From: a virus
Lineage: Duplodnaviria; Heunggongvirae; Uroviricota; Caudoviricetes
IMG/VR virus record: IMGVR_UViG_2541047938_000006
Direction: 5' to 3' (one strand)
DNA: 64,000 bases
Of the stretch, positions 3,001 through 6,000 are shown one piece after another. The stretch's first letter is position 1. The number at the start of each line of letters is the position of its first letter. A program made the position numbers.

Positions 3001-6000
3001 TTTACTTGAACGCACTCATTCCGGGATAGTAAGAGCCCGCGGCGCAGGGAAACGTTTTGGTCGACCACCTGTGTTAAATGAAGAACAGAAACAGGCGGTA
3101 TTCGAACGAATTAAGTCAGGTGTAAGTATAAGTGCCATTGCCCGGGAATTCAAAACCTCGCGGCAAACCATTTTAAGAGCCAAAGCAAAACTTCAGACAC
3201 CTGACATATAAAAAATAATCTCGGTGTGAGATGCTTTACGTCTTCCAAGCCCCCTTCCTTGCCGTAAATGGAAAGATACATCTAATTATAGAATTTATAT
3301 GTTTTACCCTACGGCAGTGCTGGCCATTCAATATCCTGTGCAGTTGACGTATCAACACGGTTCAGCAATACCCGATACTTTTTCCATGCTTCCAGCAACG
3401 AGATTTCTTCCTCCGTTGCAATTTCCAGATCTGCAGCATCCTGAAGCGGCGCAATATGCTCACTGGCTACCTGCATCAGGTTGTTTTTTGTTTCTTCCGC
3501 CTCCCGGATCCGGAACAGTTTTTCTGCTTCCGTATCCTTCACCCAGGCTGTGCCGTTCCACTTCTGAAACTCCCCTTCCGGCGATAACCAGGTAACATTT
3601 TCCGGTAACGGACCGAGTTCAGAAATAAATAACGCGTCGCCGGAAGCCACGTCATAAACCGTTTTACCCCGATGATCTTCAACGAGATGCCACGATGACT
3701 CATCACTGTTGAAAACAGCCACGAAGCCAGCCGGAATATCTGGCGGTGCAATATCGGTACTGTTTGCTGGCAGACCTGTATGAGGCGGAATATATGCATC
3801 ACCTTCACCAATAAATTCATTAGTTCCGGCCAGCAGATTATAAATTTTTATGGTCCGTGCTTGTTCACTCATTCTGAATGCCATTATGCAAGCCTCACAA
3901 TATAGTTAAATGCGATGTTTTTGACGGTGTTTTCCGCGTTACCCGCAGCGTTAACGGTGATGGTGTGTCCATGTGAGCCAATCGCAACGGAGTGCGTATG
4001 AGCACCAATACCGACAGTATGTGCATGTGCGCCTGCGCTTGCAGCAGTGCCGGACAGCGAGTGGGTATGAGCACCATCTGATGATGTCTTCCCTGCATTA
4101 CGAGTCTGGCCACTACCGCTTGTTGTGCTCATAATCCCCGCGCTTAGATTTGAAATCGCGGTATAACCATTAGGGAAAATGCTCGTGTTCGTGCCACCAA
4201 ATGCACCGGAACTCTTGTGTTGGTGCGCACCAGCACTATTTGCGGTCCCGCTAATACTATGGGTATGCACCCCGGTGTTATTCGTGGATTTGGTTCCGTA
4301 ATCAAACGACGATGTGGTTTTCGTCCCCAAATCCGTACTGGATGCGCTGGCGCTGTGGGTGTGCGATTTAATGCCGTCCTGTTCCTGAGATAATACGGCC
4401 CGACCACTGGCGGGCTTGCCCTTAATCGTCCAGCCACGCATATCAGGGATCACGCCTGACGGATAAGCAACTGCAAGTTTCGGGTATGCAGATTTGTCAA
4501 AAGTCTGCCCCTGCATCAGGGCATAACCAGACGGAACGGTATCTGATGGCCACGGGATTGGTGCACCGACTGGATAAAACTCTGCAGGAGGATGAGCCGA
4601 GGTGTAAAGCTGCGCCCACGGCGACCAGTTTGCGTCGGTCGTATCCCGTCGTGAACGAATAAATGCCGGAGCATGAGCACCGCTTGTACCACTCCAGCCG
4701 ATGAGTAACTCACCTTCGCCAACGGCTGTCATCCCTTTCAGGTGAATGATATTTCCATACGCTGTTGGATATCCGTTGTTATACACCTCGTATAACTCAA
4801 GACCTGCTGCCCCCTGCGTATTGTCTGTCAGCGCGGTTATCAGTTCATCCAGCGCGGCTGCTTTGTTCATGGCTTTGATGATATCCCGTTTCAGGAAATC
4901 AACATGTCGGTTTTCCAGTTCCGGAAAACGCCGCTGCACCGACAGGGGGATCCCGTCGAGAATACTGGCAATTTCACCTGCGATCCGCGACAGCACGAAA
5001 GTACAGAATGCGGTTTCCACCACTTCAGCGGAGTCTCTGGCATTTTTCAGCTCCTGTGCGTCGGCCTGTGCACGCGTAAGTCGATGGCGTTCGTACTCAA
5101 TAGTCCCTGGCTGGAGATCTGCCTCGCTGGCCTGCCGCAGTTCTTCAACTTCCCGGCGCAGCTTTTCGTTCTCAATTTCAGCATCCCTTTCGGCATACCA
5201 TCTTATAACGGCGGCAGAGTCATAAAGCACCTCATTACCCTTGCCACCGCCTCGCAGAACGGGCATTCCCTGTTCCTGCCAGTTCTGAATGGTACGGATA
5301 CTCGCACCGAAAATGTCAGCCAGCTGCTTTTTGTTGACTTCCATTGTTCATTCCACGGCCAAAAACAGAGAAAGGAAACGACAGAGGCCCAAAAGCTCGT
5401 TTTCAGCACCTGTCGTTTCCTTTCTTTTCAGGGGGTATTTTAAATAAAAACATTAAGTTACGACGAAGAAGAACGGAAATGCCTTAAACCGGAAAATTTT
5501 CATAAATAGCGAAAACCCGCGAGGTCGCCGCCCCGTAACCTGTCGGATCGCCGGAAAGGACCCGTAAAGTGATAATGATTATCATCTGCATGTCACAACG
5601 TGCATCTACGCCATCAAACCACGTCAAATAATCAATTATGACGCAGGTATCGTATTAATTGATCTGCATCAACTTAACGTAAAAACAACTTCAGACAATA
5701 CAAATCAGCGACACTGAATACGGGGCAACCTCATGTCAACGAAGAACAGAACCCGCAGAACAACAACCCGCAACATCCGCTTTCCTAACCAAATGATTGA
5801 ACAAATTAACATCGCTCTTGAGCAAAAAGGGTCCGGGAATTTCTCAGCCTGGGTCATTGAAGCCTGCCGCCGGAGACTGTGCTCAGAAAAAAGAGTTTCT
5901 TCTGAAGCAAACAAAGAAAAGAGTGACATTACTGAATTGCTCAGAAAACAGGTCAGACCAGATTGAAGCAATTTAGATAATCGTGCAGACTACGCCCCCT

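Follow-up and report, generated by a model that had tools for sequence, protein, structure and literature searches.

A complete lambda-type cos site and a Nu1-Stf fusion ORF at the nohA-stfQ end of a Qin-type cryptic prophage of Escherichia coli

A lambda-type packaging site that stands beside a reading frame joining a terminase gene to a tail fibre gene raises the question of what such a locus represents: the scar of a lost phage, a gene put to new use or a device for transfer by other phages. The stretch of DNA analysed here (hereafter the window, 64 kb in length) provided such a case. The region is the known nohA-stfQ end, with the cos packaging site, of the defective Qin prophage of E. coli, an identity that had escaped the sequence-only reading. 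Qin was originally defined via lambda qin111 (Espion et al. 1983, as cited in PMC5811629 and PMC5069750). The host strain is a non-K-12 E. coli, and K-12 displayed 98.7% identity with window positions 3200-6000 (2.8 kb). The prophage is inserted in ydfJ and occupies positions 1276-25402; its length of 24.1 kb was delimited by an 11-bp direct repeat, GAAATCCATAA, present at 1276-1286 and 25392-25402, and the right boundary was confirmed with a strain in which ydfJ is uninterrupted.

Gene order matches this assignment. From ydfJ onwards, the window displayed ydfK, pinQ (a serine DNA invertase homologue, 2621-3211, plus strand), tfaQ (a tail fibre assembly gene, 3309-3884, minus strand), an ORF of 486 codons, a non-coding stretch, ynfO, ydfO, gnsB, cspI and lysis genes, followed by cspB/cspF, the Q antiterminator, relBE/hokD, DicF/dicB (DicF being detected with Rfam), an exonuclease gene, xis and int (24059-25354). 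Qin in K-12 and other strains is syntenic (ydfJ'-ydfK-pinQ-tfaQ-stfQ'-nohA-ynfO-ydfO-gnsB-cspI-rzpQ-rrrQ onward), and the features that define membership, i.e. insertion in ydfJ and the order pinQ-tfaQ-stfQ'-nohA-ynfO-ydfO-gnsB-cspI-lysis genes-cspB/F-Q-relBE-dicF/dicB, were all found. Synteny with the annotated strains MB57 and 81 was full. K-12 Qin (nohA b1548, stfQ' b1547, tfaQ, pinQ) further shared with the window the ydfJ site, the cos sequence from cosN to Nu1 and the breakpoint within stf. Yet, nohA and stfQ' are separate and out of frame in K-12, instead of forming a single 486-aa ORF. The window prophage also differs from K-12 Qin by the presence of the exonuclease gene, xis and an uninterrupted int, and by the absence of dicA, dicC and ydfABC. 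With strain MB57 as reference, its replication and immunity segment is partly deleted.

The general layout of cos (cosQ, cosN, cosB) has been summarised previously (PMC6739421). A complete lambda-type cos was found at 5344-5563, on the minus strand. Alignment related lambda 48141-48502 to window 5895-5534 with 96.4% identity and lambda 1-697 to window 5533-4838 with 97.8% identity, which places the boundary between the lambda right and left ends at 5534|5533. The 12-nt cohesive-end sequence of cosN, GGGCGGCGACCT (5522-5533, minus strand), was identical to that of lambda and occurred only once in the 64-kb window. Its flanks were those of lambda except for one base (lambda 48486 T>C), a change also displayed by phages PhiR42_1, PhiR34_1 and 2H10. 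The cosQ heptamer GGGTCCT (5557-5563, minus strand) was identical to lambda 48473-48479. Within cosB, where the R elements were placed according to their lambda coordinates, R2 (5410-5424) and R1 (5370-5384), both on the minus strand, were identical to lambda. R3 (5470-5481, minus strand, CATTTCCGTTCT) carried a G54A substitution relative to lambda, the same base being found in PhiR42_1 and K-12 Qin. Spacing within cosB was as in lambda except for a 1-nt deletion between R2 and R1. Hence every component of a lambda-type cos was recovered at the sequence level: cosN, cosB with R3, the IHF-site interval, R2 and R1, and cosQ.

The departures from lambda, i.e. the R3 substitution, the single-nucleotide deletion and several other changes, might suggest that this cos is a dead relic, unusable by any terminase. 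This reading is extremely improbable: all these changes are present in PhiR42_1, to which the stretch from cosQ to the Nu1 ATG is 100% identical, and cosN, cosQ, R2 and R1 do not deviate from lambda at all. The PhiR42_1 record holds a complete genome and names a propagation host, and at the sequence level the window cos therefore displays no defect.

Immediately adjacent to cos lies the 486-aa ORF (3884-5344, minus strand), whose product is exactly protein EQZ01136.1 of E. coli UMEA 3329-1. Its first 169 codons (4838-5344, minus strand) correspond to Nu1, the deduced residues being identical to lambda gpNu1 at 167 of 169 positions (the exceptions are K48R and L132I). The remainder (3884-4837, minus strand) comprises the last 317 codons, and the stop codon, of a 1023-codon side tail fibre gene. 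Residues 170-486 aligned to residues 708-1023 of the 1023-aa Stf of phage mEp460_ev081, with 270 identities out of 317, and the ORF stop codon overlaps the start of tfaQ. The two parts meet in frame at a deletion junction, ...CTGATA|ACCGCG..., located at 4836-4839 on the minus strand with the break at 4837/4838 (in longer form, ...GAACTGATA|ACCGCGCTGACAGAC...). On the stf side, this break coincides with a recurrent breakpoint, designated E2 and considered below. Pfam searches recovered the Phage_Nu1 profile (PF07471) over its entire length (1-164 of 164, E = 7e-100), including the N-terminal winged helix-turn-helix, as well as a tail Collar domain over 260-307. E-values were effectively zero, so the similarities reflect homology and not chance.

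The gpA-binding region of gpNu1 was reportedly located in its last ~40 residues by Frackman et al. in 1985. In the fusion protein, the last 12 residues of gpNu1 (PGLLSEYIEQSG) are absent and replaced by Stf sequence, so that this C-terminus is incomplete. The ribosome-binding region and ATG of the ORF are those of lambda Nu1. No promoter-like site was found directly upstream, and any expression of the fusion would thus need late read-through.

Searches with tblastn detected no homologues of lambda A, B, C, E, V, H or J in the whole 64-kb window. In lambda terms, the deletion begins at 698 and reaches approximately the last third of stf, a loss of roughly 21 kb. Since the genes for the terminase large subunit, portal, capsid and tail are missing, the element is unable to package itself. 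On these structural points the sequence-only reading was right: it had proposed an intact cosQ-cosN-cosB region close to lambda, a Nu1 N-terminus joined directly to a tail fibre C-terminus, the deletion of the morphogenesis genes and the resulting inability to self-package. Alignment to lambda cos and Nu1 left cosN and cosB undisrupted and confirmed that Nu1 and stf form one ORF.

Functional phages of Qin-like or lambda-like type illustrate what has been lost. PhiR42_1 (PV340562) displays an identical cos and Nu1 5' part, followed by full-length Nu1 and A, and carries Qin-type ynfN, gnsB, ydfO-like and ynfO-like genes upstream of cos. Phage mEp460_ev081 (LR597641) possesses the same stf-tfa-pin-ydfK module as the window. 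Both phages, unlike the window prophage, possess the whole morphogenesis block from A to J as well as a full-length Stf of 1023 aa. The ancestral element was very probably a complete phage, from which some 21 kb of head and tail genes were removed by illegitimate deletion; cos, Nu1 codons 1-169 and the terminal 317 codons of stf were left behind.

Comparison of strains revealed how variable this scar is. K-12 displays the same stf breakpoint but contains, exactly at the junction, 22 additional Nu1 bases (CCGGGGTTGCTGAGTGAATATA). These extra bases leave nohA and stfQ' in different frames: nohA is read in the wrong frame for 13 codons before it stops, which gives a total of 189 aa, and stfQ' forms a separate pseudogene. 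Most economically, the window allele would derive from a K-12-type junction by a secondary 22-bp loss between two ATA repeats. The in-frame junction of the window type was recorded in 7 of 5426 complete E. coli genomes, and PGAP (RefSeq/NCBI) annotates this allele as two pseudogenes. Two other in-frame forms were encountered: one of 493 aa, which is a K-12-type junction that has lost one G from a run of five (G5), and one of 471 aa in strain MB57, from which a further 45 bases have been lost in frame. In-frame alleles have therefore arisen in at least three ways (486, 493 and 471 aa). Against a simple scar, these three routes might indicate that the fusion was selected for and did not arise by decay alone.

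Could the fusion then be a domesticated, functional gene? Two versions may be envisaged. The fragment keeps the DNA-binding and self-association regions of gpNu1 without its extreme C-terminus, and could bind cosB or assemble into mixed oligomers with helper gpNu1, thereby hampering the packaging of lambda-type phages; or the fusion could drive translation of the receptor-binding part of Stf and of tfaQ. The completeness of the Nu1 domain, with only two substitutions in 169 residues, and the repeated keeping or restoration of the frame would fit such a role, all the more since the Rpp proteins of phage-inducible chromosomal islands (PICIs), which contain TerS-like DNA-binding domains, heterodimerise with lambda TerS and block it (PMC6739421). 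However, about one third of deletions are expected to be in frame by chance, the in-frame allele is rare while K-12 and most strains are out of frame, and other junctions at the same stf point occur in any frame, one of them giving an immediate stop codon. Together with the lack of a recognisable promoter-like site of its own, this makes domestication improbable, and the ORF is most likely a pseudogene scar without function of its own.

The scar interpretation also accounts for related loci. In some strains, parts of A, Z/U or J persist at the same locus between Nu1 and stf, corresponding to intermediate deletion states, and many full-length prophages are found at ydfJ as well. The locus thus displays a single phage type at various stages of decay. 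Taken as a whole, the window very probably contains the cos/nohA/stfQ' end of a Qin-type cryptic lambdoid prophage in ydfJ that lost ~21 kb by illegitimate deletion, in which cos remained intact in sequence and the fusion ORF is the scar.

What such a cos may still do can be considered from the lambda system, where the R elements serve as binding sites for gpNu1, nicking at cosN is carried out by gpA, and packaging starts at cosN, passes cosB and Nu1 and continues up to the following cosQ-cosN. Were a lambda-type terminase supplied in trans, gpNu1 should bind and gpA should nick the window cos, judging from its sequence, and the resulting break would stimulate recombination with an infecting lambdoid phage, as for the K-12 remnants. 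Packaging initiated at the integrated cos would head towards lower coordinates, i.e. stf', tfaQ, pinQ, ydfJ and the flanking chromosome, and would not enter the lysis, Q and int body of the prophage. It could not finish properly because a second cos is lacking. The whole 24.1-kb element would be transferred only if excised by Int/Xis and present as a multimer; a monomeric circle amounts to about half the lambda genome and a dimer to 48.2 kb.

Published work on K-12 counterparts is in line with part of this scheme. The DLP12 nohD/nohB-cos region likewise belongs to a defective lambdoid prophage with cos and a Nu1 homologue and recombines with lambda (PMC3945230); it differs from the window by a full-length Nu1 with part of A and by another chromosomal site. 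Lambda picks up Qin stf-tfa at a frequency of about 2e-6 and DLP12 cos-nu1 about 100-fold more often, and junctions between DLP12 and lambda cluster at cos, half of them adjoining it (PMC3945230). Likewise, cloning of cosQ-cosN-cosB renders a non-transferable plasmid transferable by lambda or phi80 (PMC6739421), and defective lambdoid prophages of O157 without head and packaging genes are packaged with the aid of other prophages, occur in particles and are transferable (PMC2669165). The sequence-only reading had further suggested that the retained packaging signal would allow mobilisation by, or recombination with, a lambdoid helper. Recombination gained support from the lambda x Qin stf-tfa and lambda x DLP12 cos-nu1 exchanges (PMC3945230), whereas the mobilisation part was over-simple, given that packaging would leave the prophage body behind and meet no second cos. 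Helper-mediated packaging or mobilisation of the element is a plausible prediction from the sequence.

A stronger version of this idea would see the element as a helper-dependent satellite resembling cos-type PICIs, in which cos is kept so that lambdoid phages mobilise it as a unit. Like EcCICFT073 and cosmids, it holds cosQ-cosN DNA without packaging genes, a configuration packaged by lambda or phi80 terminase in trans (PMC6739421); cos, int and xis are retained, all morphogenesis genes are lost, and 24.1 kb is close to half a lambda genome. PICIs, however, own a distinct cosB differing from that of their helper, a TerS-redirecting Rpp, replication functions and a helper-sensing repressor (PMC6739421). 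None of these was evident in the window prophage, whose cosB is the phage's own and not redirected, and whose size exceeds the ~10-15 kb of such islands. Moreover, it originated from a full-length phage that was reduced step by step, through deletions varying from strain to strain, and its replication and immunity segment is itself partly deleted. Finally, De Paepe et al. observed no excision of K-12 Qin or other remnants during lambda infection (PMC3945230). Such a satellite nature is accordingly very doubtful, even more so than domestication of the fusion.

The presence of a cos and Nu1 remnant in Qin and DLP12, as well as the uptake of their DNA by lambdoid phages, was already recognised in the 1980s, and measurements followed in 2014. 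The feature itself adds little, and its in-frame allele is an uncommon form of the junction seen in K-12. It would gain importance only if the chromosomal cos allowed a helper to start packaging the chromosome on the ydfJ side or a Qin multimer formed after excision, or if the Nu1 fragment interfered with terminase.

The only surprising result lies outside what the sequence-only reading had claimed, and concerns the stf breakpoint E2 (GGGTA|RCCGCG), whose natural context is ...AAAAGGTCGGGTA|RCCGCGCTGACAG. The survey of this site covered other genomes as well as prophage contigs of IMG/VR, in which the sequence preceding ACCGCGCTGACAGAC... was examined. At least 16 independent leftward deletions with differing partners end at E2, and so does one rightward deletion. 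The natural context ...CTTCAAAAGGTCGGGTA|ACCGCG was found in about 58 loci, and the ACCGCG allele of E2 had 12 distinct partners: Nu1 at lambda 697 (this window), Nu1/A at 719 (K-12), A at 955, B at ~3910, E at 6321 and at 6988, Z at 8064, U at 8767, J at 17833, a non-lambda portal gene, a non-lambda tail gene and a twelfth without assigned gene. The allele ...GGGTA|GCCGCG displayed 4 further partners among 35 loci. The rightward case was recorded in one contig, where the left side ...GGGTA| is fixed and joined into tfa. E2 junctions occurred in lambdoid prophages with different head types and with different modules downstream of tfa.

Elsewhere in stf, only two junctions were located within 40 nt upstream of E2 and one 45 nt downstream (MB57), and some ten further homology end points were recorded in the remaining 2.1 kb of the gene. 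As a control, the gene D site GCA|ACCGCGCC displayed 0 junctions in 121 loci, which excludes the hexamer ACCGCG alone as the hot spot; in gene Z, a site sharing the right-hand sequence, TTA|ACCGCGTTG, displayed 3 partners in about 120 loci. Shared descent of a single E2 junction was also rejected: on the lambda map, partners lie to the left as well as to the right of one another (e.g. U at 8767 and J at 17833), so the deletions cannot be nested derivatives of a single event. Most partners possess a TA at the junction and two lack it in their natural sequence, from which it appears that short and often imperfect homology to CGGGTA is used.

Several known mechanisms were considered for E2 and set aside. 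Site-specific recombination by PinQ was rejected: no hix- or gix-like 26-mer was found near E2 or pinQ, no inverted copy of the E2 region is present in the intact phage or the window, the best gix-like alignment places the crossover 5 nt from the observed junction, and the prophages with E2 junctions include some that carry another module downstream of tfa. An adjacent deletion mediated by an IS, or an element integrated at E2, was rejected too, no insertion being present at E2 in about 125 IMG/VR loci and all partners being phage genes in the same orientation. Chi-limited RecBCD degradation was discarded (no Chi within 3.7 kb), as was the action of Int on a secondary att site, the att core GAAATCCATAA being unrelated to E2. 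A hairpin or cruciform was not supported by DNA folding, with z-scores of 0.07 and -0.52 and only a 3-bp stem predicted. Of the restriction specificities considered (BstEII-type GGTNACC, EcoP1I, EcoP15I and FokI-like), none is known to fit both the stf and the Z-gene sites. A limited literature search found no paper on such a breakpoint hot spot.

The re-use of E2 might possibly reflect a sequence-specific break with one protected end, or a hitherto undescribed recombinase. A bolder proposal, which we regard as rather unlikely, is that the stf side of the junction is no random scar and that an unrecognised sequence-specific nuclease or recombinase, of host, prophage or competing phage origin, breaks lambdoid stf genes at E2 and thereby drives the recurrent loss of morphogenesis genes, i.e. 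prophage domestication. The hot spot could be of greater consequence than the fusion: if it is real, the decay of E. coli prophages would be partly channelled via a specific DNA site and not proceed by random deletion. In these genes, the 10-bp palindrome CGGNTANCCG is present in full at E2 alone, and partner sites are enriched in its halves, a perfect half copy being present at 6 of ~20 partner sites, as compared with 4.5% of all lambda TA dinucleotides. Left end points were re-used as well: lambda 697 was joined to five different partners and lambda 955 to two.

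No fewer than 16 leftward deletions, independent of one another and with differing partners, shared the stf-side breakpoint of the window junction (GGGTA/RCCGCGCTGACAG, minus strand, 4837/4838), and one rightward deletion also ended there. The evidence came from genomes and prophage contigs L001, L002, L007, L008, L019, L024, L030, L033, L039 and L040, together with L053, L058, L066, L298, L307-L310 and L312. Within the 40 nt upstream of this breakpoint only two junctions were recorded, and a control site carried junctions in none of 121 loci. The breakpoint site corresponds to the full palindrome CGGNTANCCG; a cause for its re-use was sought and none was found.

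Re-use extended to the left end points, one within Nu1 at window 4838 (lambda 697 equivalent) and one within gene A at lambda 955, as seen in L002, L044, L298, L005 and L312. For the Nu1 point (...CTGATA/CC) the partners were three different J points, the stf site itself and the position +45 from it; for the gene A point (...CGGTTA/) they were the stf site and lambda 14246. A second re-used deletion end point was observed in gene Z (lambda 8064 equivalent, TTA/ACCGCGTTG), where the right-hand sequence is the same as at the stf site. This gene Z site had three partners, and one Z/stf junction besides used the 8-bp TAACCGCG common to both sites; the loci concerned are L008/L078, L117, L190 and L024.

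Nu1 and stf were fused in frame by at least three routes, as shown by comparing window 3884-5344 with proteins P0003, P0006 and P0007. The fusion is 486 aa long in the window (3884-5344), 493 aa where the K-12 junction is combined with the loss of one G from a G5 run, and 471 aa in E. coli strain MB57, where 45 more bases were lost. That several in-frame routes exist may be due to chance, or to read-through into stf'/tfaQ being weakly selected.

Directly upstream of cosQ, window 5586-5610 displayed seven clustered differences from K-12 Qin; here the window agrees with PhiR42_1-type phages, whereas K-12 agrees with lambda. This segment is a small mosaic patch adjoining cos and is consistent with cos-stimulated recombination. 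At about 20190-20200, the window prophage lacks ~2.6 kb present in MB57 (L005 25154-27764), namely part of a replication gene, a YdaT-like gene, dicC, dicA, ydfA, ydfB and most of ydfC. The dicB repressor is therefore gone, and the promoter of the dicB operon was probably lost too. DicF (20549-20600), dicB, ydfD, a RecE-like exonuclease gene, xis and int were retained.

Rfam matches on the minus strand comprised IS009 within tfaQ (3343-3541), cspA-type thermoregulator leaders upstream of cspI (7406-7791) and cspB (10301-10693), and sok, adjoining hokD (17539-17710). At about 35600-64000, ynfG is disrupted by a second prophage-like insertion. It encodes the antirepressors antA/antB, a PAPS reductase and IbrB-like pair, a Panacea-domain protein and an LPD38 polyvalent protein of 2792 aa, and an sRNA-Xcc1 match (Rfam, 36036-36124) lies close to its edge.
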